Assembly (NCBI GenBank): GCA_019456075.1
Contig: VRUN01000003.1
Span: 1,794 to 65,793 of the forward strand
Source of the DNA: Candidatus Methylomirabilota bacterium
Lineage (GTDB): Bacteria > Methylomirabilota > Methylomirabilia > Methylomirabilales > CSP1-5
DNA: 64,000 bases
Direction: 5' to 3'
A program made the position numbers and the translations under genes. Below the pieces are notes generated by a model that saw nothing but the letters and a program-made list of their open reading frames with translations, did no database searches and had not been told where the DNA came from. This document shows, in pieces, positions 2,224-62,675 of this stretch (within the stretch, counting starts at the first letter, position 1; every line of letters starts with the position of its first letter).

Positions 2224-3186
2224 TCAGCGGTGTAAGTCTCGGTAGGCGGGGACGCCCCCAAGACTAGTCGCCGTCTCGATGGCCCGCAGGACGGCGGCGG
2301 CCACCATTTCAGCGCCCGCTTGCCCCACCAGATTGACGTCCCCTTCCACGCGTCCCGTAGATAAAGCGAAGATGACATCCCCGTCAAAGGTGGTGTGCAC
2401 GGGGGAGATCGTTCGGACGAGTCCCCCCTGCCCCATGCGGGCGACCAAGATCGCCTCCCCCTTGGTCAGGCGAGCATTCGTCGCTATCACCGCCAATGTG
2501 GTGCTCTGGATGTAGAAGGCCCGCCGCAGCCGTCCCTGTTTCATTTGGAGGAAGGTATCCGCGGGCCTTCCCGTCTCTGGATCCCTCGCCCCCGCGACAA
2601 TAGCCCCGGTCGAAGGATCCCGAACATCGCCGAAGGCGTTCACCGCGGCCAACGCCCACACCCTGAGGCCACCGGAAAGTTGCACACTCGCGGTCCCCAC
2701 GCCACCCTTCATGGCGTGCGGCACGCCGAAAAGCTTCCCCACCGTCGCCCCCGTCCCGACGCCGACACTCCCCTCCTCTACCCCTGCCCGCACGGCCGCC
2801 TCACACGCCCTGTATCCCATGGCCGCATCGGGACGCCTGCGGAAATCCCCAATCCCGAGGTCAAACAGGATAGCACCGGGGACAATGGGAACCTTCGTCA
2901 CCCCCACATCAAAGCCGATGTCTCGCTCTTCCAAGTACCGCATGACGCCGGTGGCCGCCTCGAGTCCAAAGGCGGACCCCCCCGCCAAGAGCACGCCGTG
3001 GATCTGATCCACCAGATGATGGGGCGTCAGGGCGTCGAGCTCCCGGGTCCCCGAGGCCAAGCCTCTGACATCCACCCCCCCCACGGCCCCCTCCTCGCAC
3101 AGGATAACCGTGCAGCCGGTGCACGCATCAAAATCGCTGGCATGCCCCACTCGGATCCCCTCGACGACCGCACCGTCCTGTTCCAT
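2224..3186 (-). CDS. Peptidase S58 / DmpA-BapA (P1) family aminopeptidase
   Basis: 320 aa. The pattern is typical of DmpA-type Ntn hydrolases (GVRVGHASD..TGCTVIL, GGSAFGL, STTLAVIATNA). Confidence 0.78.
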   Translation of the reverse strand: MEQDGAVVEGIRVGHASDFDACTGCTVILCEEGAVGGVDVRGLASGTRELDALTPHHLVDQIHGVLLAGGSAFGLEAATGVMRYLEERDIGFDVGVTKVPIVPGAILFDLGIGDFRRRPDAAMGYRACEAAVRAGVEEGSVGVGTGATVGKLFGVPHAMKGGVGTASVQLSGGLRVWALAAVNAFGDVRDPSTGAIVAGARDPETGRPADTFLQMKQGRLRRAFYIQSTTLAVIATNARLTKGEAILVARMGQGGLVRTISPVHTTFDGDVIFALSTGRVEGDVNLVGQAGAEMVAAAVLRAIETATSLGGVPAYRDLHR

Positions 3187-3381
3187 TCGGACCCCCTGAG
3201 CCCAGGCCTCCGCCTATTCTACCTTCCTCCTCCCCCGGCCACAAGGCAGCGGACTCGGTTGCTCCCGCGCTCGCCTTTTGCTATGCTAGAAAGGAGATCG
3301 GCGACAATCCATGGGAGAAATTTCTATGGGTCTCACCATGGTCTAAAATGCCCGCGTGTGGATGAGGCGCGAGAAAGATCT

Positions 3382-3825
3382 ATGGGATACTCGAGAGAAG
3401 ACAGAGAGGGAGAGTTCGAGCACCTCCGCTCCTCCATGGTCGAGTTGGTGAAGGCCCTCGTCCACCGAGGACGCCCCGCCCTTGTCCGGGGCTCCCGCTT
3501 CGAGCCGCCGATGGATGTGTACGAGACGAGCTCGGCGGTCGTCGTCGTCATGGAAATTGCGGGGACAGAACGGAAGGATATCGAGATCCACCTCGACGGG
3601 AGCCGCCTTCGGATTACCGGGGGGCGGCACGTCACTGCCCCTCTCGATGCACTACGATGCCACCAGATGGAGATTGAATTCGGGTCCTTTGAGCGATGGG
3701 TCACCCTCGATTTTTTCCCACCCCGTGACGCCATCGAGGCCGCCTATGAAGGCGGGCTCCTGCGCATCACGATTCCCAAGCGGGGGGATCCCAGCACGAC
3801 GACCGTCCAGATCCTGGCCGAGTAA
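3382..3825 (+). CDS. Hsp20/alpha-crystallin small heat-shock protein
   Basis: Only the C-terminal 147 codons of the long ORF 2395..3825 look real. They carry an alpha-crystallin domain (PPMDVYETSSAVVVVMEIAGTERKDIEIHLDGSRLRITG ... GLLRITIPK). The upstream part is antisense to the S58 peptidase gene. Confidence 0.85.
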   Translation: MGYSREDREGEFEHLRSSMVELVKALVHRGRPALVRGSRFEPPMDVYETSSAVVVVMEIAGTERKDIEIHLDGSRLRITGGRHVTAPLDALRCHQMEIEFGSFERWVTLDFFPPRDAIEAAYEGGLLRITIPKRGDPSTTTVQILAE

Positions 3826-3848: not shown

Positions 3849-6233
3849 ATGGCAGCGCAGGAAGCAGCACAGAGTCGGCTCACGAGCACCGGTGCCCAGA
3901 TTCCATCCGAACTCCCCGTCCTGCCTCTCCGTGGAAGTGTGCTTTTTCCCCACGTGATTCTTCCCATCCTGGTCGGGCAAGATAAATCGATTCACCTCGT
4001 GGATGAGGCCGTGATCGGCAATCGGATTATCGCGATCGTGGCCCTCAAGGAGAGGGGGGTGGAGGATCCTCGGCCGGAGGATTTCTTTCCGGTGGGGACA
4101 GCGGCGGTCATCGCCAAGTTGATCAAGCTTCCCGACGGGACCATCAGCATCATGGCCCAGGGCCTCGAGAGGATCCGCCTGACTCAGATCACCCACACGG
4201 ACCCCTACTTCCGCGCAACGGTTGAGCCGCAGCCTGATGAGGGGGAACGAGACAAGGAGGTGGAGGCGTTGGTGGTCAATCTGCGCCGCCTCTTCCAGCA
4301 GGTCGTCGAGCTCTCCCCCCACCTTCCCGCCGAGCTCGCCATCCTGGCGCTCAACATTGAAGAGGGCGGGATGCTGGCGGATATGATCGCCTCGAACATG
4401 AACCTCTCGGTTGAGGAGAAGCAGGAGATCCTCGAAATTATCGAGATCAAGCCCCGCCTGAGGCGAGTGACGGAACTCATGACGCACCAGCTGGAGTCAC
4501 TCGAGCTCGGTCAACAGATCCAAACCCAGGTCAAGGCGGGGATGGATAAGTCCCAGCGAGAGTATTACCTGAGAGAGCAACTCAAGGCCATCCAGCAGGA
4601 GCTCGGAGAGGGGGATGAGCGGACGCAGGAGGCGGAGGAACTCCGTCAACGAATCGATGAGACCCCGATGCCCGACGAGGTTCGCGAAGTGACGCTCAGG
4701 GAACTCGGTCGGTTCTCCCGAATGCCCCCCGCCGCGGCAGAGTACAGCGTGGTCCGGACGTATCTCGACTGGCTCCTCGAGCTTCCCTGGCTTAAGGGGA
4801 CCGAGGATCGCCTGGACATCCCTGCTGCCGAGCAGATTCTGAACGAGGACCACTACAACCTCGAGAAGGTGAAAAAGCGGATGTTGGAGTACCTGGCGGT
4901 TCGAAAGCTGAAGAAGGATATGAAGGGGCCCATTCTCTGTTTTGTCGGTCCCCCAGGGGTCGGAAAAACCTCCCTGGGGCATTCCATCGCGGCAGCGCTC
5001 GGCCGGAAGTTCATCCGGATGTCCCTCGGCGGGATCCGGGATGAGGCCGAGATCCGGGGCCATCGTCGGACCTACGTCGGCGCCCTCCCAGGCCGGATCA
5101 TTCAGGGGATCCGGAAGGCTGGGAGCAATAACCCCGTCTTCATGCTGGACGAGGTGGACAAAATCGGGGCCGATTTCCGGGGCGACCCTTCCTCCGCCTT
5201 GCTGGAAGTACTGGACCCGGAACAGAACATGAGTTTTTCGGACCACTACCTGGAGATTCCCTTCGACCTGTCCCGGGTCATGTTCATCGCAACGGCGAAC
5301 ATCCTGGATCCGATCCCTCCGGCCCTGCGGGACCGAATGGAGGTCTTGGAGCTTCCGGGGTACACGGAATCGGAGAAACTCCAGATCGCCAAGCGCTATC
5401 TGATTTCGAAGCAGCTCGATGCCCATGGCCTCACGGCGGCACAGCTCACCATTTTGGACGACGCCCTCCGAAATATCATCACCTCTTACACGCGTGAGGC
5501 AGGGGTGCGAAACCTGGAGAGGGAGATTGCCACGATCTGTCGCGCAGTGGCCAGGGAGGTATCGGAGGGGCGGACCGATCCGGCCACGGTCACGGCGGAG
5601 GGCCTACACCCCCTTCTCGGCCCCGTCAAGTTCTTCTCGGAGGTGGCCGAACGCACCTCTCAACCGGGGGTGGCCATCGGACTTGCCTGGACACCCACCG
5701 GGGGTGACATCATCTTTGTGGAGGCCACGAAGATGCCCGGCAAGGGGAACCTCATCCTGACCGGCCATCTGGGTGAGGTGATGAAGGAGTCAGCCGAGGC
5801 GGCCTTGAGCGCCGTCCGGAGCCGGTCCAAGGAGCTGGGCCTCCCCGAGGATTTCTTCCTCAAACAGGATATCCACGTGCATGTCCCCGCAGGAGCCATT
5901 CCCAAAGACGGGCCATCCGCGGGGATTACAATGTACACCGCTCTTCTCTCACTCGTGAAGGGACGGCCTGTTCAGAGCGGAGTCGGGATGACTGGGGAGA
6001 TCACTCTGCGGGGGCGGGTCCTACAGGTAGGCGGCATCAAAGAGAAAGCGCTGGCGGCCAAGCGCGCTGGCCTGAAGATCGTTCTTCTTCCCGAGCGGAA
6101 CGCCAAGGACCTGGAGGATGTTCCAGATGAAGTCCGGCAAGACTTCGAGTTCAAGTTCATCGCTAGCGTAGACGACATACCGGAGAATGCCCTCGTCCCG
6201 GAAGAGGCCCCGCTACCTCACGACGGTCGCTGA
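3849..6233 (+). CDS. lon: ATP-dependent protease Lon
   Basis: 794 aa with a LON N-domain, AAA+ Walker A (GPPGVGKTS) and a protease domain carrying catalytic Ser in PKDGPSAGITM. Confidence 0.97.
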   Translation: MAAQEAAQSRLTSTGAQIPSELPVLPLRGSVLFPHVILPILVGQDKSIHLVDEAVIGNRIIAIVALKERGVEDPRPEDFFPVGTAAVIAKLIKLPDGTISIMAQGLERIRLTQITHTDPYFRATVEPQPDEGERDKEVEALVVNLRRLFQQVVELSPHLPAELAILALNIEEGGMLADMIASNMNLSVEEKQEILEIIEIKPRLRRVTELMTHQLESLELGQQIQTQVKAGMDKSQREYYLREQLKAIQQELGEGDERTQEAEELRQRIDETPMPDEVREVTLRELGRFSRMPPAAAEYSVVRTYLDWLLELPWLKGTEDRLDIPAAEQILNEDHYNLEKVKKRMLEYLAVRKLKKDMKGPILCFVGPPGVGKTSLGHSIAAALGRKFIRMSLGGIRDEAEIRGHRRTYVGALPGRIIQGIRKAGSNNPVFMLDEVDKIGADFRGDPSSALLEVLDPEQNMSFSDHYLEIPFDLSRVMFIATANILDPIPPALRDRMEVLELPGYTESEKLQIAKRYLISKQLDAHGLTAAQLTILDDALRNIITSYTREAGVRNLEREIATICRAVAREVSEGRTDPATVTAEGLHPLLGPVKFFSEVAERTSQPGVAIGLAWTPTGGDIIFVEATKMPGKGNLILTGHLGEVMKESAEAALSAVRSRSKELGLPEDFFLKQDIHVHVPAGAIPKDGPSAGITMYTALLSLVKGRPVQSGVGMTGEITLRGRVLQVGGIKEKALAAKRAGLKIVLLPERNAKDLEDVPDEVRQDFEFKFIASVDDIPENALVPEEAPLPHDGR

Positions 6234-7336: not shown

Positions 7337-7431
7337 GGAGGCGGATTGGGTCTGGTGGCTCTCCCGGTCTTCAAAACCGGTGGGCCTGCCAAAAGCGGGC
7401 CGGTGGGTTCGATTCCCACACGCCTCCGCCA
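7337..7431 (+). tRNA. selC: tRNA-Sec (anticodon UCA)
   Basis: 95 nt starting GGAGGCGG and ending ACGCCTCC-G-CCA. Anticodon arm is CCGGT/CTTCAAA/ACCGG with TCA at 7371-7373. The long variable arm is GGCCTGC-CAAAA-GCGGGCC and the T arm is GTGGG-TTCGATT-CCCAC. Length and long extra arm are typical of bacterial selC. Confidence 0.9.
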
Positions 7432-7640: not shown

Positions 7641-8522
7641 TCAGCTTTTGTTCCCATCCTCGATCACCGACTGGATGTAATCGATAATCATCTTTCGCGT
7701 TTCGTCAGAACGGTCGAGGAATTCCAACCCGGTACGGTAAATCAACTGGCGATCCCCATCCGGCTGCACCTCTGACCGGTGCACCACCGAACGGGCTACG
7801 CGACACTTGAGGCTCATTCTCTTCCCGAGCAGATCGAGGTCCAAAGAGGAGAGGGTCCCTGGTCGAACAACATCGGCATGCTCAATCAGGGAGCCTCCCG
7901 GACTAATGTCCAGGATGCGCGCGTCGTAGATGGCAGTCACCCGCCCCTTGGTCCTCCCTCCCACGACGAATCGAGCGTGTTGCCGCCGGTCCGCAGCTTT
8001 CCGGTCTCCAGGTTTCCGCTCCGCAGCTTCTGGCCCAACAGCTCCCTCGACAGCAGCCTCCAGCTCCCCAGCGACCTCGTCCGGAGCCTCCGAGGCTGCA
8101 CCTTCCGCGACCGCGGCTTCCGGATCCGCAGGTTCTGGCTCCACGACCTTCAGGGTCGCTGCTTCCAAGCCCTCAGCTTCCCCCGCCGCGGCGTCTCGCT
8201 CCGTAGCTTTCCCATCGGAAGCCTCTGGCGCCACAGCGTTTTCGTCCGCAGGTTCCAGCTCACCGACTTCCCGGTTCGCCGCTTCCCCGTTCGCAGCTCC
8301 GCCGTCGAGGACAGGCGCTTCATTCTCGACGGTTAGCTGCGCTTTGGCCCCCTCGAGGGGAACAGATTCGGGGTTTGACCGGTTCTTTCGCCGCTTCTTT
8401 CTCTTTCTCTTCAACGCAATTCCTCGGTCAATTTCCATGAGTATATGGGGATCTAGAAGCCAGAGACCCGGAGAATATCCTCCAGAAGGATATCCCTGTG
8501 TAAAGGGAGCGGCACAAAACAT
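7641..8522 (-). CDS. PilZ domain protein with basic patch and acidic repeat region
   Basis: C-terminal PilZ (RRQHAR..., DISPGGSLIEH, CRVARSVVHRSE, YRTGLEFL). The N-terminal part has KRKRKKRRK followed by two ~40-aa E/A/P-rich repeats. The start codon is uncertain (8522 or 8438). Confidence 0.8.
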   Translation of the reverse strand: MFCAAPFTQGYPSGGYSPGLWLLDPHILMEIDRGIALKRKRKKRRKNRSNPESVPLEGAKAQLTVENEAPVLDGGAANGEAANREVGELEPADENAVAPEASDGKATERDAAAGEAEGLEAATLKVVEPEPADPEAAVAEGAASEAPDEVAGELEAAVEGAVGPEAAERKPGDRKAADRRQHARFVVGGRTKGRVTAIYDARILDISPGGSLIEHADVVRPGTLSSLDLDLLGKRMSLKCRVARSVVHRSEVQPDGDRQLIYRTGLEFLDRSDETRKMIIDYIQSVIEDGNKS

Positions 8523-12278: not shown

Positions 12279-13733
12279 TTACCTCCCGGCGAGCTTTTCC
12301 CGGAGCAGATCGTTGATCAGTTGTGGATTGGCCTTCCCTTTGGTCACGCGCATTACCGCCCCGACCAATGCGGTGAGGGCTTTTTCCTTTCCCCCCTTGA
12401 AGTCGGACACGGGGCCAGGGTTTTGCTCTATCACCTGGTCCACGATCTGACTGAGCTCGTCTCGGTCACTGATCTGAACAAGTCCCTTCTCCTCGACGAT
12501 CGTCTCAGGGCTCTTCCTTGTCTGAATCATCTCCTCAAAGACCCCCTTCGCGATCTTCCCGCTGATGACCCCTCCCCGGATCAGGTTCAAGAGGGCGGCC
12601 AATTGGGCTGGGGTGACAGGGTTTTCGGAGATGTCTTTTCCTTCCCGATTGAGGTATCCCAAGAGCTCGGACATGATCCAGTTGCTCACCAGCTTCGCAT
12701 CCCGGTGGAGCTGAGCACATTCTTCAAAATAGTTCGCCAGTGCCTTGCTCCCGGTGAGCACTGCAGCATCATATTCCGGCAGCCCATACGCCTGCACGAA
12801 CCGCCGCCGCCGCTCTGCGGGGAGCTCCGGCAGGCTCGCCGCGATCTCCTCAATCCACGCAGGAGAAACCTCCACCGGGACCAGATCCGGTTCTGGGAAG
12901 TAGCGGTAGTCGTGGGCCTCCTCTTTGCCGCGCATGGGTAGGGTTACCTCTTCGTCAGCATCCCAGAGGCGCGTTTCCTGGATGACGGGTCGACCGGCCC
13001 TCAGGAGCGTCATCTGGCGCTGAATCTCATACTCCAATGCCCGCTGGACGTTTCTGAAGGAGTTCATGTTTTTGACCTCGGTCTTGACTCCGAAGTCCGC
13101 GGACCCCGACGGACGCACCGAGACATTCGCATCGCAGCGAAGATTCCCCTCCTCCATGTTCCCCTGGGACACGCCCAGATATTGCAGGATGGCCCGAAAC
13201 TGTTTCAGAAACTCCGCCGCCTCTTCCGGCGTGCGGAGATCGGGTTCCGTCACCATCTCAATCAACGGTACGCCGCATCGATTGAAATCCACCAGGCTGT
13301 AATCTGCCTGGTCCATCGCCCCGGCGTGGAGAAGTTTCCCTGCATCCTCCTCCAGATGAATCCGCCGAATCCTCACCCGTCTGGCCGTCCCATGGTCACT
13401 CATCTCCACAAAGCCGCCGACGGCCAGGGGAAGTTCGTACTGAGAGATTTGATAGTCCTTGGGCAGATCGGGGTAAAAATAGTTCTTTCGGGCGAAGCGG
13501 CAGTGCGGGGCGACCGTGCCATGGACCGCGAGCGCCGTTCGAATGGCGAATTCCACCGCTTTTTTATTGAGGACCGGCAAGACTCCTGGCATGCCCAGAC
13601 AGACAGGGCACGTCTGTGAGTTGGGGTCTTCTCCAAACCGGGTGCTGCAGCCGCAGAAGATCTTTGATTCGGTGAGGAGCTGGACATGCACCTCGAGTCC
13701 AATCACCGCCTCGTATGTCAGTTCAGCGTTCAT
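12279..13733 (-). CDS. gatB: Asp/Glu-tRNA amidotransferase subunit B
   Basis: 484 aa with full-length GatB pattern (VIGLEVHVQL, CPVCLGMPG, C-terminal YqeY-like tail). Confidence 0.96.
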   Translation of the reverse strand: MNAELTYEAVIGLEVHVQLLTESKIFCGCSTRFGEDPNSQTCPVCLGMPGVLPVLNKKAVEFAIRTALAVHGTVAPHCRFARKNYFYPDLPKDYQISQYELPLAVGGFVEMSDHGTARRVRIRRIHLEEDAGKLLHAGAMDQADYSLVDFNRCGVPLIEMVTEPDLRTPEEAAEFLKQFRAILQYLGVSQGNMEEGNLRCDANVSVRPSGSADFGVKTEVKNMNSFRNVQRALEYEIQRQMTLLRAGRPVIQETRLWDADEEVTLPMRGKEEAHDYRYFPEPDLVPVEVSPAWIEEIAASLPELPAERRRRFVQAYGLPEYDAAVLTGSKALANYFEECAQLHRDAKLVSNWIMSELLGYLNREGKDISENPVTPAQLAALLNLIRGGVISGKIAKGVFEEMIQTRKSPETIVEEKGLVQISDRDELSQIVDQVIEQNPGPVSDFKGGKEKALTALVGAVMRVTKGKANPQLINDLLREKLAGR

Positions 13734-13804
13734 AGTTCAGAGTTCAGTGTTGAAAGTTTATGGTTCAGAGTTCACGGTTCACAGTCCAACGTCCGATGTC
13801 GACC
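13721..13804. repeat. Heptanucleotide tandem array (12 units, GTTCANN family)
   Basis: gttcagc gttcata gttcaga gttcagt gttgaaa gtttatg gttcaga gttcacg gttcaca gtccaac gtccgat gtcgacc, all in one 7-nt register. The first two units overlap the first gatB codons. Confidence 0.9.
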
Positions 13805-14057
13805 AAGAGCGAGGAGGGGGTTCCTTCCGAGGCAGGCGACATCTGGCTTGCGTCTCCGCAAGAGTCCGGAGTCCTTCGGACTGGCCGGGGTCCCGCCGCC
13901 GAAGCGTAGCGCAGGTGGGGGTGGCCCGGATCGGCAAATTACAACGCCTAAGCATGCGTACCGTTGCCTCTGCACATCAAGTCCCCGGAGAATTGTGGCG
14001 CCGCCGAGGAAGGTCCCTCCGAGCTCTTCGCGATGGTCGGGCGTCGGTCGTCGAGAT

Positions 14058-14501
14058 TCAGCCGGACGTCTTGATCGCCTCGAGCCGCATGACATATTCA
14101 TCGGAAAGACCGTGTTCTTCGGCCCCTTGGATCAAGAGGCGCATATACCGTTTCGACGGCGGTCGGTAGCCCTCTGGTTGAGCCACGATATAGGCGTGGG
14201 CCTGCTGCGCTTTCCCATCCTTGGTCTCCACGGTCACCGTCTTCCGGATATAGTCCTTGGGGACCCCCTCGTACTGGTCCAAGACTTTCAGATCCGGCTC
14301 GCCGATCTCCCAGAGGACTCCTTCCATGACCCCTCCCGGCGCGGGCCTAAGATCAGCGGTTCCGCCACCCCACATCGTGGAGCCGCGGACAAAAGTAATA
14401 TCGTAGTCGCGAAGCGTAGCTGCCGAGACGAACTTGGCTCCCGTGCAGCGCTTCTTGAACCAAAACCTTTCCATATTTGAGCCATACGCAAAGTACAACA
14501 T
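14058..14501 (-). CDS. Gamma-glutamylcyclotransferase-like (AIG2/GGACT family) protein
   Basis: N-terminal YFAYGSNM motif, later EGVLWEI...LDQYEG. About 147 aa. It sits between gatA and gatB. Confidence 0.8.
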   Translation of the reverse strand: MLYFAYGSNMERFWFKKRCTGAKFVSAATLRDYDITFVRGSTMWGGGTADLRPAPGGVMEGVLWEIGEPDLKVLDQYEGVPKDYIRKTVTVETKDGKAQQAHAYIVAQPEGYRPPSKRYMRLLIQGAEEHGLSDEYVMRLEAIKTSG

Positions 14502-14511
14502 CACCTTACTC

Positions 14512-14609
14512 GTTCAGGGTTCGTGGTTCAGGGTTCATGGTGGGAAGATCACCGTTCATTGTCCCCGTCCCGGTATTTCCTCTGAACCCTCAACTCTCAA
14601 CCCTGAACT
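14512..14609. repeat. Heptanucleotide array with inverted halves (14 units)
   Basis: The left half is gttcagg gttcgtg gttcagg gttcatg and the right half is ctgaacc ctcaact ctcaacc ctgaact, its reverse-complement family. All units share one 7-nt register. The array fills the gatA-GGCT spacer. Confidence 0.9.
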
Positions 14610-14610
14610 A

Positions 14611-16071
14611 TTACAGGGGTGGTTTACGTCTATGCCACTCCGTGGCCTGTTCGTAGGCAAAGCCCACCTGAAGCAGCGTTGCCTCATCAAAGGGCTTCCC
14701 GAGAAGCTGCAAACCGATGGGAAGCCCGGCTTGGGTAAAGCCACAGGGGAGAGAGATCCCCGGGATCCCTGCAAGGTTGGCTGAGATGGTAAAGATGTCT
14801 GAGAGATACATGGTCAGGGGGTCATCAGTCTTTTCACCGAGACCGAAGGCCGCCGTGGGGGCCGTCGGGGTCACGATCACGTCGCAACGCTTGAAGGCCT
14901 CCTCGAAGTCTTTCCGGATCAGGGTCCGTACCTTGAGAGCCTTCAGATAGTACGCATCGTAGTATCCGGCGCTCAGGCCGTAGGTTCCCAGCATGATCCG
15001 CCGCTTCACCTCGGCACCAAATCCATTCTGCCGGCTCTTCATGTACATTTCGAGAAGATTCCTCGCTTTTCCAGTCCGAACCCCGTACTTCACTCCGTCA
15101 TAGCGAGCCAGATTCGAGCTCGCCTCAGCCGTGGCCACCAGATAGTAGGTCGCCACGGCATACTCGGTGTGCGGGAGAGAGATCCGCTCTGCCTTGGCCC
15201 CCAGGGACTCTAAAACGCTGATTGCCCCCCGGACGGCGGTCTCTACCTCTGCGTCCATTCCCTCGATGAAGTATTCGTCCGGGATACCGATCCTCAGCCC
15301 AGTGATTTCCCTGCCCAACTGGGCTGTGTAGTCTGGGACAGGCATATCCACCGACGTCGAGTCGCAGGGATCATGCCCAGCGAAGACGCGTAAAAGGATC
15401 GCCGCATCTCGAACATCCTTGGTCATGGGCCCGATCTGATCCAAGGATGACGCGAAGGCGATGAGCCCGTATCGGGAGACGCGACCGTACGTGGGCTTCA
15501 GCCCCACGATCCCACAGAAGGCTGCCGGCTGTCGGATGGAGCCCCCCGTGTCTGAGCCGAGGGCCCCGGCACAGAGGTCCGCCGCGACTGCCGCCCCCGA
15601 CCCCCCGCTGGACCCTCCTGGAACCCGGCTGACGTCCCAGGGATTTCGGGTGATCTTGTAGCCCGAATTCTCGGTAGACGAACCCATCGCAAATTCGTCC
15701 ATATTGGTCTTCCCGAGAAGAACCATACCCGCCTGGTCCAAGCGCCTCATCACCGTCGCATCATAGGGCGGAATAAATCCCTCTAAGATCTTGGAGGAGC
15801 AAGTAGTCGGGACACCTTGGGTACAGATCACATCCTTGATGGCGAGTGGAACACCCGCCAATGGACTAACCTGCTCCCCTTTATCCAGACGCCGATCCAG
15901 ACGAGCCGCCCTCGTGAGCGCCTCCCGGCCCGTCACGGCCATGTAAGCCTGGACCTTTCCCTCTTCTTGCGCGATGCGCTTGAGAAAGGCTCTCAGCACC
16001 TGGCCAGCCGTCACCTCCCGGCGCTGGAGCAGTCCCTGCAGATCATGAATGGTGAGAGCCGTTAGTTCCAT
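14611..16071 (-). CDS. gatA: Glu-tRNA(Gln)/Asp-tRNA(Asn) amidotransferase subunit A
   Basis: 486 aa with the amidase signature ([28 protein letters not shown]). Confidence 0.96.
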
Positions 16072-16075
16072 ACTA

Positions 16076-16183
16076 GTTCACAGTTCACAGTTTGTCGTTC
16101 ATGGTTCATGGATAAGACCGACCACCTCGACACACGCCTTCCTATTTCAGTAAGCCCTGAACCCTGAACCATCCACCATGAAC
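16076..16183. repeat. Heptanucleotide array with inverted halves
   Basis: The left half is gttcaca gttcaca gtttgtc gttcatg gttcatg. The right half is cctgaac cctgaac catccac catgaac. The array fills the gatC-gatA spacer. Confidence 0.88.
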
Positions 16184-16474
16184 CTACTCCTCAAGGATGC
16201 GGGGAACGCGGAAGAAAACCTCCTGGCGATCAGGGGCATTAGCCAGGGCCTCTTCTTGAGAAAGGCACGACGAGACCGCATCCTCGCGAAAGACATTGGT
16301 CATGGGGATGACGTGAGAAGTCGGTTCGATCTCACTGGTATTCAGCTGGTTGAGCTTATCAATGTAAGTCAGGATCGCATTCAGCTGGGCCTGCATCTTT
16401 TCCCTCTCCTCGCCGGAAAGGCCCAACCGGGCGAGCCTCGCCACATGTTCCACCTCTTGGCGCGTAATCTTCAT
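16184..16474 (-). CDS. gatC: Asp/Glu-tRNA amidotransferase subunit C
   Basis: MKITRQEVEHVARLARLGLSGEE... is the typical GatC N-terminus. ATG at 16474 has a GGAGGAGG RBS. The ORF track's TTG at 16489 is less likely. Confidence 0.93.
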   Translation of the reverse strand: MKITRQEVEHVARLARLGLSGEEREKMQAQLNAILTYIDKLNQLNTSEIEPTSHVIPMTNVFREDAVSSCLSQEEALANAPDRQEVFFRVPRILEE

Positions 16475-16494
16475 CGCCTCCTCCGCCAAAGGAA

Positions 16495-16503
16495 ATTATA
16501 GCA
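16495..16503 (-). promoter_or_regulatory. Extended -10 promoter candidate for gatC
   Basis: The minus strand reads TGCTATAAT, ending about 20 nt upstream of the gatC ATG. Confidence 0.4.
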
Positions 16504-16590
16504 TGATAGCATTTCACGATGGGTCCGCAAAGATTTTCCGATGAGAGGTTCTCTTCCTAACAGCCCAGCATCTGCACCTCCCTCGCCCTC

Positions 16591-16632
16591 CCGAAGAGAC
16601 CCGATTCTCCTCGGGATTTTTATTTTCTTCTT
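16591..16632 (+). terminator. Orphan plus-strand intrinsic terminator-like hairpin
   Basis: CCGAAGAG-acccgatt-CTCCTCGG (7 of 8 bp) followed by GATTTTTATTTTCTTCTT. The T-run is present on the plus strand only, and no plus-strand gene lies upstream. Confidence 0.35.
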
Positions 16633-16861
16633 AGGCAGCACGTGGAGGCCCCGAGCGACATGCCCGGAGCGGCGGGGCCCCTCGGCAGGCGACGGCCTGG
16701 GAAACCGAGGCGCGATCCGTGCCTGTTTTCCTCCTGCATGGATCGTGAACACGGAGGGACCCAGGCCGTAAGCCGCCGCTCAGGGTCGCCGCGGGAGGCC
16801 CGGAGCGAGGGGCCGAAGGTGTTGTTTTCGAGGAAGGATGTTGTCCCGAGCTGTTCTCGTT

Positions 16862-19060
16862 TCAGGCTCGGGTGAGCTGGGCGTGTTTCACCTTGAGTTT
16901 TTTCGTTCCGATCCCGGGAAAGGCCACGACGACGTTCATGTCGTCTCCATTGCCAATCCGCTCTCGGATCCTGCCCACCCCCCATTCAGGATGTCTGACC
17001 CTGATTCCCGGCTGGTAAAAGTCCACAAAAGGTACCTGATCCGTCTCCACGTCATATCGCAAGGCAGAAGGATCAAAACTGTCATGCGGCGTCGAATAGG
17101 GTGTGGCATAGGAAGGGGTCCGGGGCTCGATCCGTTGAAGGAGGTGAGCCGTGATCTCTTCCAAAAACCGGGAGGGAAGATTAAAGCTCTCCCCGCCGTA
17201 CAGTCGTCGCTGCACGGCCGCGGTGAGCAAAAGGCGCTTTTTGGCCCGCGTCATTCCCACGTAGCAAAGACGCCGCTCCTCTTCAAGCTCTTCCGGATCG
17301 GTGTAGGACCGACCGTGCGGGAAGACACCCTCCTCCATCCCGGCGATGATCACCACGGGAAACTCTAATCCCTTGGCCATGTGCAGTGTCATCAGGGTCA
17401 CCTTTCCGCGGACATCTTTCATCCCCTCGTCCACATCGGTGAGAAGCGCAACCATATCTAAGAATGCTTGCAGGGACGTGTCTTCGCTTCGCTGGACAAA
17501 GTCTTGAGCAGCCGAGATGAGCTCTTGGAGGTTCTCGATCCGAGCCAAAGCCTCTGGGGTCCCCTCCTGCTCCAACTGCGTCACATACCCGGTCTCGTGC
17601 AGGAGGGCCGAGACCAGGTCTGGCACCGAGAACTCGGAAACGCGAGTGACAAAGCGCTCAATAAGGGTTTGAAATTTCTGGAGAGCTTTCAGAGGTCGCG
17701 GCGACAGAAGTCCTTCCTTCTCGATTGACCCACACGCGTCCCACAGAGAAAGCCCCCTGCGCGCGGCAACTTCGGAGAGGCGATCCAAGCTCGCCCGGCC
17801 GATCCCTCGCGCCGGAACGTTCACGGCACGGAGAAAACTCACCGAGTCGGCCGGGTTCGCAATCAACCGAAGATACCCCAAGAGGTCTCGAATCTCCTTG
17901 CGCTCGTAGAACCGGAGGCCCCCCACAATGGCGTAAGGAACGACCGCCCGTCTCAAGGCATCCTCGAGAACTCGGGACTGGGCATTTACACGATAGAAGA
18001 CGGCACAGTCGTCAAGGCTGTAATCCTCGGTTACCACGAGATGTCTGATGGCCTCTACGATGAAGGTCGCTTCATCCCACTCATCCCTCGCGTGGTAGAA
18101 ACCGACCGGTTCTCCCACTTCATTCTCCGTCCACAGCGCCTTTACCTTGCGTCCGCGGTTTCGGACAATGACGGAGGAGGCTGCTTCCAAGACGCACTGG
18201 GTCGACCGATAGTTTTGTTCAAGCCGGATTACTTTGCAGAGTGGGTAGTCCCGTTCAAAATCCAAGATGTTTGCCAGGTCGGCCCCGCGCCACCGATAAA
18301 TTGACTGATCGTCATCCCCAACCACCGCCAGGTTCTGGTGTCGGTCGGCCAGCAGCCGGATCAACCGGTACTGGGCATGATTCGTATCCTGATACTCATC
18401 GACCATGATATAGCGCCACAGCTCATGATAGGCGTTGAGGATCAGCGGCCGCTCCATGAAGAGGCGGACGGTCTCCATCAAGAGGTCGTCAAAATCCAAG
18501 GCCCCGCTTCTCTGCAGTGCCGCCTGATAGCGGTAATAGATCTTCGCCACCCGCTCTTCCAGATAATCCGCCGCCTGGGCGGCAAACTCCGCCGGGGTGA
18601 GGAGATCATTCTTGGCGCGACTGATCCTGGCCCGGACCACCCCCGGGTGGATCACCCGTTCACCCAGATCCAACTCTTTGAGGCACTCTCGGAGGAGGGA
18701 GAGTTGATCGCCCTCGTCATAGATGACAAAAGAAGAACGAAGACCCAAGTGTTGTCCGTTTTTCCTCAGGATCTTGACGCAGGTGGCGTGGAAGGTCCCG
18801 ACCCAGACGTTCAGTCCCTCGGCCCCCAGGAGCTTGGCCACCCGCTCTCGCATTTCGCCGGCCGCCTTGTTGGTGAAGGTCACCGCGAGGACATTCCAGG
18901 GACGAACCTTATGTTCGCCGATCAGGTAGGCGATGCGGTGGGTAATGACGCGTGTCTTCCCCGATCCGGCCCCGGCCAGGATGAGAAGGGGTCCTTCGGT
19001 ATGGAGGACCGCCTCCCGCTGCGGCGGGTTCAGCTCGATCAGATAAGTTGCAGAGTCCAC
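16862..19060 (-). CDS. pcrA: ATP-dependent DNA helicase PcrA/UvrD (SF1A)
   Basis: 732 aa with Walker A AGAGSGKTRVITHRIAYL, DEYQDTN and the full set of UvrD helicase motifs. Confidence 0.94.
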   Translation of the reverse strand: MDSATYLIELNPPQREAVLHTEGPLLILAGAGSGKTRVITHRIAYLIGEHKVRPWNVLAVTFTNKAAGEMRERVAKLLGAEGLNVWVGTFHATCVKILRKNGQHLGLRSSFVIYDEGDQLSLLRECLKELDLGERVIHPGVVRARISRAKNDLLTPAEFAAQAADYLEERVAKIYYRYQAALQRSGALDFDDLLMETVRLFMERPLILNAYHELWRYIMVDEYQDTNHAQYRLIRLLADRHQNLAVVGDDDQSIYRWRGADLANILDFERDYPLCKVIRLEQNYRSTQCVLEAASSVIVRNRGRKVKALWTENEVGEPVGFYHARDEWDEATFIVEAIRHLVVTEDYSLDDCAVFYRVNAQSRVLEDALRRAVVPYAIVGGLRFYERKEIRDLLGYLRLIANPADSVSFLRAVNVPARGIGRASLDRLSEVAARRGLSLWDACGSIEKEGLLSPRPLKALQKFQTLIERFVTRVSEFSVPDLVSALLHETGYVTQLEQEGTPEALARIENLQELISAAQDFVQRSEDTSLQAFLDMVALLTDVDEGMKDVRGKVTLMTLHMAKGLEFPVVIIAGMEEGVFPHGRSYTDPEELEEERRLCYVGMTRAKKRLLLTAAVQRRLYGGESFNLPSRFLEEITAHLLQRIEPRTPSYATPYSTPHDSFDPSALRYDVETDQVPFVDFYQPGIRVRHPEWGVGRIRERIGNGDDMNVVVAFPGIGTKKLKVKHAQLTRA

Positions 19061-27676: not shown

Positions 27677-27720
27677 TGTAAGATTTACACGGGGCCGATG
27701 TAAGGATTACACGCGGCCGA
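27677..27720. promoter_or_regulatory. Tandem 22-bp repeat with internal palindromes (candidate enhancer/UAS)
   Basis: tgtaagatttacacggggccga and tgtaaggattacacgcggccga are 19/22 identical. Each contains TGTAA-N3-TTACA. Their centres lie about 118 and 140 bp upstream of the -24 element. Confidence 0.5.
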
Positions 27721-58552: not shown

Positions 58553-58568
58553 CAGCAGCCACCGGCGC

Positions 58569-58687
58569 GAGACATGAGACCGGAGACGGGAGATCGGAGA
58601 CGGGGACCACAGACCCTAGACTCCAGCCTCTAGTCTCCTGTCTCCAGTCTAGTTGCGGACAGCAGACAGCTGATTGCTGATCAGCCG
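58569..58687. repeat. Heptanucleotide tandem array (17 units, GAGACNN / AGTCTCC / CAGCTGA families)
   Basis: gagacat gagaccg gagacgg gagatcg gagacgg ggaccac agaccct agactcc agcctct agtctcc tgtctcc agtctag ttgcgga cagcaga cagctga ttgctga tcagccg, all in one register. The array ends at the mazG-like stop codon. Confidence 0.88.
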
Positions 58688-62513: not shown

Positions 62514-62528
62514 CTCCCCTTCAATGCT

Positions 62529-62675
62529 GCTATCAGCTATCAGCAGTCGGCCGTCCCCAGTCGCAAAAACGGTTCAGGGTTCAGAGTTCACGGTTCACAG
62601 GTAAGACAAATTCGAAATTCGAATTTCGACATACCGCTCGGTCATCGGTCGCCGGTCATCGGTTATCGGCCGTCA
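62529..62675. repeat. Heptanucleotide tandem array (21 units, four unit families in one register)
   Basis: gctatca x2, gcagtcg gccgtcc ccagtcg caaaaac, ggttcag x2, agttcac ggttcac, aggtaag acaaatt, cgaaatt cgaattt cgacata ccgctcg, gtcatcg gtcgccg gtcatcg gttatcg gccgtca. The array spans the whole pilD-dtd spacer. Confidence 0.9.

Follow-up and report, generated by a model that had tools for sequence, protein, structure and literature searches.

Among described repeats, the short tandemly repeated repetitive (STRR) sequences of cyanobacteria come closest to the subject of this study; at the hupS/hupL junction they form hairpins for which transcript stability or translational coupling has been proposed, neither being proven (PMC2670836). 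Here we analyzed a 64,000-nt stretch of DNA (the window; G+C 60.4%) from an uncultured NC10/Methylomirabilales bacterium and, within it, the minus-strand operon gatC-gatA-GGCT-gatB, in which GGCT is a gamma-glutamyl cyclotransferase/AIG2-like gene. The spacers of this operon carry arrays of 7-nt units with a GTTCA core, which an initial annotation had likened to STRR; that likeness stands, the hupS/hupL hairpins included. We think it probable that the arrays are arms of palindromic heptad elements, resembling STRR and other long simple sequence repeats (LSSR), and that they were inserted into gene junctions that had been tight, are copied as units and are tolerated through their folding.

STRR units reportedly read CCCCAGT, TTGGTCA and CAACAGT, and STRR are also said to extend helix P12 of the RNase P RNA. 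The arrays in the window share with STRR the tandem 7-nt units beyond chance, the presence of several families in one genome, an intergenic and often intra-operon position and a transcript able to form hairpins. STRR, however, belong to heterocystous cyanobacteria, and GTTCA is not among the three units just named; in NC10 the units are heterogeneous (five constant and two variable bases), the polarity of the arms is strict, an insert resembling a miniature inverted-repeat transposable element (MITE) is nested in loops, and phage tail operons contain the core as well. The sole resemblance at the level of the unit is a minor TCGGTCA array (62638-62669), which agrees at 6 of 7 positions with what is said to be the STRR2 unit.

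Two other systems invite comparison. Among the repetitive extragenic palindromic sequences (REP, BIME and REPIN), REP elements are single palindromes of 20-40 nt with a family-specific sequence, mobilized by RAYT transposases. The arrays are likewise imperfect extragenic palindromes, predicted to lie between co-transcribed genes and to fold in the mRNA, apparently dispensable and variable among relatives, but their arms are made of phased heptads. The operators of the ribbon-helix-helix (RHH) protein omega of inc18 plasmids are contiguous 7-bp heptads with the core WATCACW, in direct or inverted orientation, each bound by one dimer; these are plasmid promoter or centromere sites with a single core, whereas the arrays here are chromosomal, lie inside operons and have many cores.

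Heptanucleotide arrays of other bacteria are also related in part. Xanthomonas and Nostoc carry GGGAATC/GGGGATT and heterogeneous (GGGANTN)n arrays, some of them in inverted pairs (PMC4692102), and such LSSR resemble ours in that heptamers are over-represented, intergenic and heterogeneous with conserved positions, and in that the same genes flank them in related species while their length and sequence vary greatly (PMC4692102, PMC4679880). They are, however, G-rich, with G-quadruplexes under discussion, and mostly single, whereas the NC10 arrays are not prone to G-quadruplexes, are mostly palindromic and abut stop and start codons. In Geobacter metallireducens, class 3 sites carry the heptanucleotide MTYCTGA five times in tandem, on opposite strands; GGGACCG x4 elements occur there too (PMC2700814). 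These sites, too, are multicopy and intergenic, hold two opposite-strand heptamer sets at variable distance and are absent from a sister species, but they have other cores and were read as binding sites of a global regulator, and an operon-junction geometry is not described (PMC2700814). In marine Beggiatoaceae, TAACTGA arrays lie just upstream of or sometimes overlap start codons, replacing a recognizable Shine-Dalgarno (SD) site, and are present in ribosomal-protein operons as well (PMC4679880); they resemble the one-armed array at gatB described below, but have one perfect unit in 2-6 copies, as direct repeats (with one inverted case) and without hairpins. For the 7-nt step itself, the only published idea, in Mrazek 2007 as quoted in PMC4679880 and PMC4692102, is the polymerase footprint. 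Our arrays are of a kind already known, the STRR/LSSR heptamer repeats, and within it they appear to form a new family, marked by the GTTCABR core, the NC10 host, the strict polarity, the MITE-like nesting and the occurrence in phage tail operons, none of which was found in the literature searched. That literature contained nothing on NC10 heptamers or on the repeat strings, which agrees with the earlier statement that no family with this core was described.

Heptamer arrays at the gat operon junctions

The heptamer arrays are real and lie far beyond chance. Tandem Repeats Finder (TRF) reported arrays of period 7 or 14 in all three spacers (13720-13785, 14512-14541, 14580-14609, 16075-16111 and 16155-16170), and a sliding lag autocorrelation over the window exceeded 0.68 at lags 7 and 14 and in a few places at lag 15, none of the other lags from 3 to 13 exceeding this value. 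The string GTTCANNGTTCA, with at most one mismatch, matched 24 times, against 2.19 +/- 1.53 matches expected from dinucleotide shuffles; none of 100 shuffles reached 24, and almost all matches fell within four intergenic loci. Array-bearing intergenic regions numbered 5 of about 32 in the window, every one between co-directional genes, and the other 27 or so gave no lag-7 signal. No heptamer array was found in the coding regions of the window, consistent with the view that a 7-nt period is non-coding, yet array ends have been absorbed into the termini of open reading frames (ORFs), namely the gatB start and, in one relative, the C-terminus of Dtd. An assembly artefact was ruled out, as independent NCBI, ENA and JGI assemblies hold the same arrays.

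Read in the mRNA sense, spacers 1 (gatC/gatA) and 2 (gatA/GGCT) share one general plan, a palindrome of (GTTCANN)4, a loop of 41-45 nt and (NNTGAAC)4-5 (Table 1). The initial annotation had recognized correctly that the distal halves of these two arrays are the reverse-complement family, but in arriving at 14 and about 15 units it had included the non-heptameric loops; the real numbers are 4+4 in spacer 2 and 5+4 in spacer 1. The single register that it described holds within each arm and is lost across the loops, where the TGAAC offsets are 1 and 5 modulo 7. The long, periodically mismatched hairpins that it foresaw are indeed predicted, with minimum free energies of -36.0 kcal/mol (z -1.9) for spacer 1, -42.7 kcal/mol (z -3.5) for spacer 2 and -63.1 kcal/mol (z -2.4) for a GAGAC/GTCTC palindrome elsewhere in the window. 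The predicted hairpins of spacers 1 and 2 begin 0-2 nt after the stop codon and end 4-10 nt before the start codon, and over the hairpins as a whole the distances are 0-4 nt and 4-18 nt, respectively. In spacer 1, 4 nt (TAGT) separate the end of the 3' arm from the gatA ATG, and no SD site was found at this start in the window.

The claim that arrays fill every junction applies to two of the three, because spacer 3 (GGCT/gatB; 324 nt) consists mostly of a 224-nt MITE-like insert, which we call element X, and a decayed arm. Only 22% of this spacer is heptameric (13734-13804), and the 12 units earlier counted at 13721-13804 are nine TGAAC units, whose partner arm is absent, and three decayed units of the GGTCA family. 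As had been noticed, the array enters gatB: its last two units supply the ATG and codons 1-5 (13733-13719; gatB start ATGAACGCTGAACTG). The nine-unit array is identical in one relative (L090), and the GTTCA partner arm is present in another (L091). Element X is GC-rich and has terminal inverted repeats of about 30 nt (AAGRGCTCGGAGGG...CCTCCTCGCYCTT).

Conventional signals were looked for in the same region. No intrinsic terminator (a GC-rich hairpin with a U run) and no sigma-70-like promoter was found on the coding strand of the three spacers, so terminators and internal promoters were ruled out; the two terminator-like sites found are on the plus strand (16600-16724). Searches against Rfam returned the selenocysteine tRNA alone for the window at the gathering threshold, and no match for 13600-16900 at E <= 1. 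This result, together with the absence of the elements from the relative L089, rules out a riboswitch, a T-box or a gat-operon leader. The arrays would almost certainly be co-transcribed.

Two further loci of the window carry heptamers. The locus between the MazG-like and HEAT-repeat genes combines a (GAGACNN)5/(NNGTCTC)5 palindrome (58566-58651) with the units GCGGACA GCAGACA GCTGATT GCTGATC. The locus between the prepilin peptidase gene (pilD) and dtd holds four families in series, GCTATCA, GGTTCAN, AAATTCG and TCGGTCA, and its GGTTCAN block (62572-62600) is 93% identical, over 29 nt and several units, to 13756-13784. The heptamer cores present in the window are GTTCA, GGTCA, GAGAC, GCTATCA and AAATTCG. 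The initial annotation had overlooked these other families, and also the minus strand of the operon, the MITE-like insert and the phage distribution of the GTTCA core.

Turnover of the arrays among relatives

Six assemblies more than 99% identical to the window have identical arrays, the sole structural difference being a 27-nt indel in element X (13856-13882). A metagenome search with GGCT returned five close relatives only, and in more distant NC10 relatives the gene order is retained but the spacers are not. In L089, whose GatA is 75% identical and whose gene order is the same, the junctions measure 21, 9 and 13 nt and have GGAGG-type SDs and no heptamers. These tight junctions, and the swaps of array family at one junction described next, indicate that the arrays are secondary, dispensable and exchanged wholesale. 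L089 also carries a perfect (GGGGTCT)x6 inside a UvrD-like helicase gene (7697-7755), which at 42 nt stays in frame.

At gatC/gatA, five relatives have GTTCA palindromes that differ in their loops and unit numbers, and one relative (L088) has a single arm. At gatA/GGCT, a GTTCA palindrome is present in the window, L087, L092, L093 and L094, and L088, L090 and L091 have a (GATGACC)n...(TCGGTCA)n palindrome whose loop contains element X; the flanking proteins of L090 are 98-99% identical to those of the window despite this different element. At GGCT/gatB, L087 has a GAGAC palindrome.

Element X always lies in the loop of a TGACC/GGTCA heptamer palindrome, at a junction that varies among relatives: in L088, L090 and L091 it stands at gatA/GGCT and not, as in the window, at GGCT/gatB. 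L090 has at GGCT/gatB a TGACC/GGTCA palindrome without X, i.e., an empty site where the window carries X, and the copy in L088 is a short deletion derivative. No target-site duplication could be defined for X, because its flanks are themselves palindromic. An incomplete copy of X lies at the end of a contig of strain L006.

Junction lengths differ at the other two loci as well. The MazG/HEAT junction measures 47-49 nt in L416 and L418, 135 nt in the window and 217 nt in L417, and the pilD/dtd junction 26-27 nt, 159 nt and 194 nt, respectively (L418 and L088 are one assembly). L417 holds nine arrays in 17.6 kb, with the further cores CAGACCN/GTCTGAN, CAGTCAG/CTGAYAG and GCTGGAA/TTCCAGC and with nested concentric palindromes, and its Dtd runs on into an array (7729-7801), which adds about 20 residues to the C-terminus. 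Dtd homologues in the protein database are called at 146-192 aa, a spread that is probably due to arrays read as coding.

The diversity of cores bears on whether the heptads might be double-stranded DNA or RNA sites for an oligomerizing protein, one heptad per subunit (omega-type RHH, or cold-shock/S1-type), in a global regulatory or structural network. At least seven NC10 cores stand at equivalent junctions (GTTCA, GGTCA, GAGAC, AGACC, CTGAYAG, GCTGGAA and AAATTCG), cores are swapped at one junction between close relatives, the sites are inside operons rather than at promoters, and no candidate protein was identified, so that we hold such sites to be very improbable in spite of the constant 5-nt core with its 2-nt spacer, the strict 7-nt phasing, the fixed arm polarity and the recurrence of the core in many phage contigs. 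Proteins have been suggested for other heptamers, namely Csp, S1 and CsrA for TAACTGA (PMC4679880) and a partner for those of Nostoc. An omega-like RHH heptad operator in particular fits poorly with the many cores, the intra-operon sites and the lack of promoter-like sites. The tight relative, the core swaps, the decayed hairpins, the one-armed arrays and the many cores disfavor any operon-specific regulator or single binding protein. The initial annotation had stated that a lack of periodicity elsewhere, or unrelated sequence at these junctions in close relatives with no effect on operon expression, would point to neutral slippage. Periodicity does occur beyond these sites, but relatives do have unrelated sequence or nothing there, which by that criterion disfavors an operon-specific regulatory role.

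We then compared the units themselves. In a logo built from 82 units of the GTTCA family, positions 1-5 carry 1.4-1.9 bits, position 6 (G/T/C) 0.2 bits and position 7 (G/A) 0.5 bits, with the consensus GTTCABR. Adjacent units were identical in 10.9% of cases, against 8.5% for units of different arrays (p = 0.30), and no copy-number change in GTTCA arrays was seen in the six strains. Because neighbors are not more alike and close strains are invariant, recent unit-by-unit slippage does not seem to be the process shaping the GTTCA arrays. Unit slippage does occur where units are near-identical: in strain L420 the AAATTCG array, (AAATTCG)3 in the window, is exactly one 7-nt unit shorter. This indel would suit in-place replication slippage that yields microsatellites, either neutral or acting as phase-variation switches, with an inverted layout that is coincidental; according to Mrazek 2007, as quoted in PMC4679880 and PMC4692102, no class of long simple sequence repeat is more abundant in many prokaryotes than the heptanucleotides, and polymerase slippage is given as their cause. 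The GTTCA units are heterogeneous, however, and the housekeeping gat genes are unlikely targets of phase variation.

Arms seem to be homogenized as arms, with pairing weakly protected, because in L091 and L093 the entire 5' arm has become GTTGAGN whereas the 3' arm is still TGAAC, and the predicted hairpin is lost (z ~0). Decay has brought several of the orthologous hairpins down to the level of shuffled sequence, with z near 0. A consensus fold of five orthologous gatA/GGCT hairpins has 21 pairs, 3/21 of them compensatory, and an unfavorable covariation term of +3.16, a result that is not decisive because repeats can be aligned in more than one way. In 9 of 15 hairpins folding is better for the sense than for the antisense strand, which is not decisive either. 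The arm polarity is GTTCA-first in all NC10 hairpins. The pattern of changes suggests that pairing is not strongly selected.

Related palindromes in phages and the origin of the elements

We searched IMG/VR for exact GTTCANN x4, with three control cores for comparison. GTTCANN x4 gave at least 120 stretches and the controls 71, 51 and 59. Among the matches listed, an inverted TGAAC partner lay within 200 nt of 27% of the GTTCA arrays versus 4-5% of controls; 46 arrays had the partner downstream (GTTCA...TGAAC) and none had the opposite order; 41% of the GTTCA arrays had identical units versus 60-72% of controls, and several arrays occurred at 19 of 120 loci versus 2-8. That the control cores also yield 51-71 viral arrays is as slippage would have it. 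The fixed polarity, the excess of inverted partners, the multi-unit blocks and loop-edge motifs (GWTAARAC and GGAAATAC) common to different loci, and an empty/filled site described below disfavor simple in-place slippage, which we regard as very unlikely for these arrays. Some viral loops (L163/L188) open with the same motif, GGAAATAC, as the spacer-2 loop of the window, and no similarity of the viral contigs to NC10 DNA was found outside the arrays. A search of cultured phage genomes with a phage element gave no match, possibly owing to the low-complexity filter.

The viral contig L157 encodes the tail module of a siphovirus (tail tube, chaperone, tape measure and minor tail proteins), with elements in its co-directional junctions in the order stop, 0-4 nt, hairpin, SD and start; at one junction an ORF starts inside the 3' arm. 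In several phage contigs a second heptamer family (GAGCATR/YATGCTC) stands in series with GTTCAAR palindromes (L157 at 7674-7835 and 2997-3539, L184, L142 and L152), and L157 has, downstream of the tape-measure gene, a 158-nt duplicated block with both families. Phages L136 and L140 are related (82-88% identical) and have the same element in both at one junction. At another junction L140 is empty (ACATAAA/TAAGGAGG) and L136 filled, with clean edges and no evident target duplication; if the elements are compared with MITEs, the arms act as the long terminal inverted repeats. L140 also has an ordinary GC-rich stem-loop at a junction where L136 has a heptad hairpin, and the L136 ORF upstream of that hairpin reads into the arm. 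At about 7440-7520 in L136 an ORF ends at the TGA in the center of the palindrome.

As a background sample we used 80 unrelated gatA loci (1 Mb) from distant phyla, in which, among the matches listed, 13 arrays had period 7 and each further period not divisible by three had 1-4. In a Chthoniobacterales metagenome-assembled genome (MAG), gatA has taken up a GTYCAAC array at its 3' end and reads through it (L031, 7440-7497), and an Acidobacteria MAG (L085) has a TTGAAC/GTTCAA-type palindrome. In a Thermodesulfovibrionales MAG (L012, 4030-4230), NTTCACT heptamer arms stand on both sides of the gene for the signal recognition particle (SRP) RNA (4088-4185; RF00169, 68.6 bits). By analogy with the reported extension of RNase P RNA helix P12 by STRR, these arms would lengthen the terminal helix of the SRP RNA.

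From the siphophages, NC10 and the similar arrays of Acidobacteria and Verrucomicrobia MAGs one could conclude that GTTCA palindromes are discrete miniature elements that spread horizontally and insert specifically between stop and ribosome-binding site, made by an enzyme with a 7-nt ruler or kept for re-initiation across spacers of more than 100 nt. Such elements would be compatible with the polarity, with the conservation of the 5-nt core, with the motifs at loop edges and with the phage site seen both empty and filled, but we consider this form of the explanation rather unlikely.

The reading that we prefer would run as follows. Each arm strings together 7-nt units in which five bases form a constant core (here GTTCA) and two vary, and the two arms are inverted copies around a variable center. 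Such elements would have been inserted secondarily into the tight stop-SD-start junctions of gatC-gatA-GGCT-gatB, would be copied between junctions as discrete units or multi-unit blocks and replaced wholesale, and may serve as landing sites for small elements such as X. The hairpin would run from just after the upstream stop to just before the downstream ribosome-binding region, so that the folded junction would resemble the short ancestral one and the array could be tolerated. Signs of copying rather than in-place growth are the shared 29-nt block, the lack of an excess of identical neighbors, the identity in six strains and the fixed polarity. We infer in this way the folding in vivo, the copying as units and the near-neutrality. 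An effect on expression is plausible as a side effect: the hairpin might shield the 3' end of the upstream cistron or, at the SD-less gatA, link termination to re-initiation.

The strongest competitor, possible if somewhat unlikely, is that the hairpins are RNA devices kept by selection, which protect against 3' exonucleases, direct RNase processing or bridge stop and start for re-initiation and so set the stoichiometry of the operon. The hairpins abut the stop codon and leave the SD/start region free, the elements recur at several phage tail-operon junctions, and the stem-loop of L140 sits exactly at the position of the L136 heptad hairpin; roles in stability and translational coupling have, as noted, been proposed for STRR. 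On the other hand, tight junctions work in L089, L416 and L418, one-armed arrays (at gatB, and at gatC/gatA in L088) cannot form a hairpin, the cores are many and unrelated, several orthologous hairpins are at shuffle level, covariation support is absent and the sense/antisense asymmetry, although in the expected direction, is weak.

Several points weigh against insertion, copying and tolerance as the explanation. The gatA SD is lost in every relative with a gatC/gatA element, in contrast to the GGGGAGG of array-free L089, and this loss, the polarity (46:0 in the viral matches listed), the stop-SD placement and the occurrence in phage genomes, compact as these are, could also reflect an RNA function under selection. 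The core is conserved far above the two variable bases, unlike what neutral decay would give, which could be explained by ascertainment (only intact arrays being detected) or by arm-wise homogenization. No RAYT or other transposase, no mobilization mechanism and no target-site duplication of the palindromes was found, no systematic transposase search of the window having been made. The clean empty/filled evidence comes from phages, not NC10, what is said of the transcript is computational prediction, and the sequence examined comes to about 64 kb from this genome and some 200 kb from relatives.

Coding context and significance of the arrays

The coordinates of the features are collected in Table 1. 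All NC10 relatives examined (L087-L094) have a GGCT/AIG2-like gene between gatA and gatB, and gatB directly follows gatA in other phyla sampled (L012 and L017). A GC-rich segment upstream of gatC, segment Y, is kept in place in L087 and L088 at 88-91% identity, and pieces of it occur, inverted, within the GGCT/gatB spacer of L093. Segment Y may be a 5' leader or else a further small element of the dispersed type. Elsewhere in the window there are a selenocysteine tRNA gene (7337-7427, plus strand; RF01852, 76.6 bits) and, in a 214-nt intergenic region, two tandem 22-nt copies of TGTAAGAWTTACACGSGGCCGA (27677-27720), each with an inverted repeat TGTAA..TTACA, which looks like a duplicated operator. 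Tandem repeats of 15 nt, or five codons, at 7986-8305 lie inside an ORF for a low-complexity repeat protein (7641-8522, minus strand).

Table 1. Positions of heptamer arrays, element X and neighboring features, in window coordinates unless a relative is named; arm units and order of parts are given in the mRNA sense.
Feature	Position	Strand	Basis and remarks
Spacer 1 (gatC/gatA)	16183-16072	-	TAG, 5' arm, 45-nt loop, 3' arm, TAGT ATG
Spacer 1 5' arm, GTTCATG GTGGATG GTTCAGG GTTCAGG	16156..16183	-	TRF, fold; abuts gatC stop
Spacer 1 loop, 45 nt, non-heptameric	16111..16155	-	sequence, fold
Spacer 1 3' arm, CATGAAC CATGAAC GACAAAC TGTGAAC TGTGAAC	16076..16110	-	TRF, fold
Spacer 2 (gatA/GGCT)	14610-14502	-	TAA T, 5' arm, 42-nt loop, 3' arm, GAGTAAGGTG ATG
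Spacer 2 5' arm, AGTTCAG GGTTGAG AGTTGAG GGTTCAG	14582..14609	-	TRF, fold; 1 nt past gatA stop TAA
Spacer 2 loop, 42 nt, opens with AGGAAATACC	14540..14581	-	fold; opening motif shared with viral L163/L188 loop
Spacer 2 3' arm, CATGAAC CCTGAAC CACGAAC CCTGAAC	14512..14539	-	TRF, fold; then GAGTAAGGTG and GGCT ATG (14501)
Single-arm array, 9 NNTGAAC units, partner arm absent	13721..13783	-	TRF
Three decayed GGTCA-family units (GTCCAAC GTCCGAT GTCGACC), 3' flank of X	13784..13804	-	sequence, relatives
MITE-like element X, 224 nt	13805..14028	-	terminal inverted repeats AAGAGCTCGGAGGG...CCTCCTCGCTCTT
Decayed GGTCA/TGACC-family arm ATCTCGACGACCGACGCCCGACCATCGCG, 5' flank of X	14029..14057	-	intact arms in L090, L091, L092
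Element X copies in relatives	L088 11494-11543; L090 1086-1276; L091 8732-8926; L092 7018-7241		
Second heptamer locus, MazG-like/HEAT-repeat genes	58566..58681	-	TRF, autocorrelation, fold
Third heptamer locus, prepilin peptidase gene/dtd	62527..62669	-	TRF, autocorrelation
gatC coding sequence	16184..16474	-	translation; PF02686 GatC in identical strains; stop TAG 16186-16184
gatA coding sequence	14611..16071	-	PF01425; GatA homologues named NC10/Methylomirabilales by sources
GGCT/AIG2-like coding sequence, between gatA and gatB	14058..14501	-	PF13772, PF06094
gatB coding sequence	12279..13733	-	PF02934, PF02637
Segment Y, GC-rich, 200 nt, upstream of gatC	window 16621-16850; L087 9102-9296; L088 9099-9296; L093 5491-5592		

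In practice, such arrays break metagenome assemblies and cause gene callers to extend the starts and ends of ORFs. Among the long simple repeats of prokaryotes, heptanucleotide arrays are the most common, and even for cyanobacteria, in which they were recognized by 1990, neither their origin nor their function has been explained. In NC10, a single four-gene operon gives a comparative series of tight junctions, one-armed arrays, full palindromes of different cores and a MITE-like element nested in a palindrome. The link to phage tail operons allows a direct comparison of empty and filled sites, so that both the origin of the arrays (copying versus slippage) and their effect (coupling and mRNA stability) become testable.

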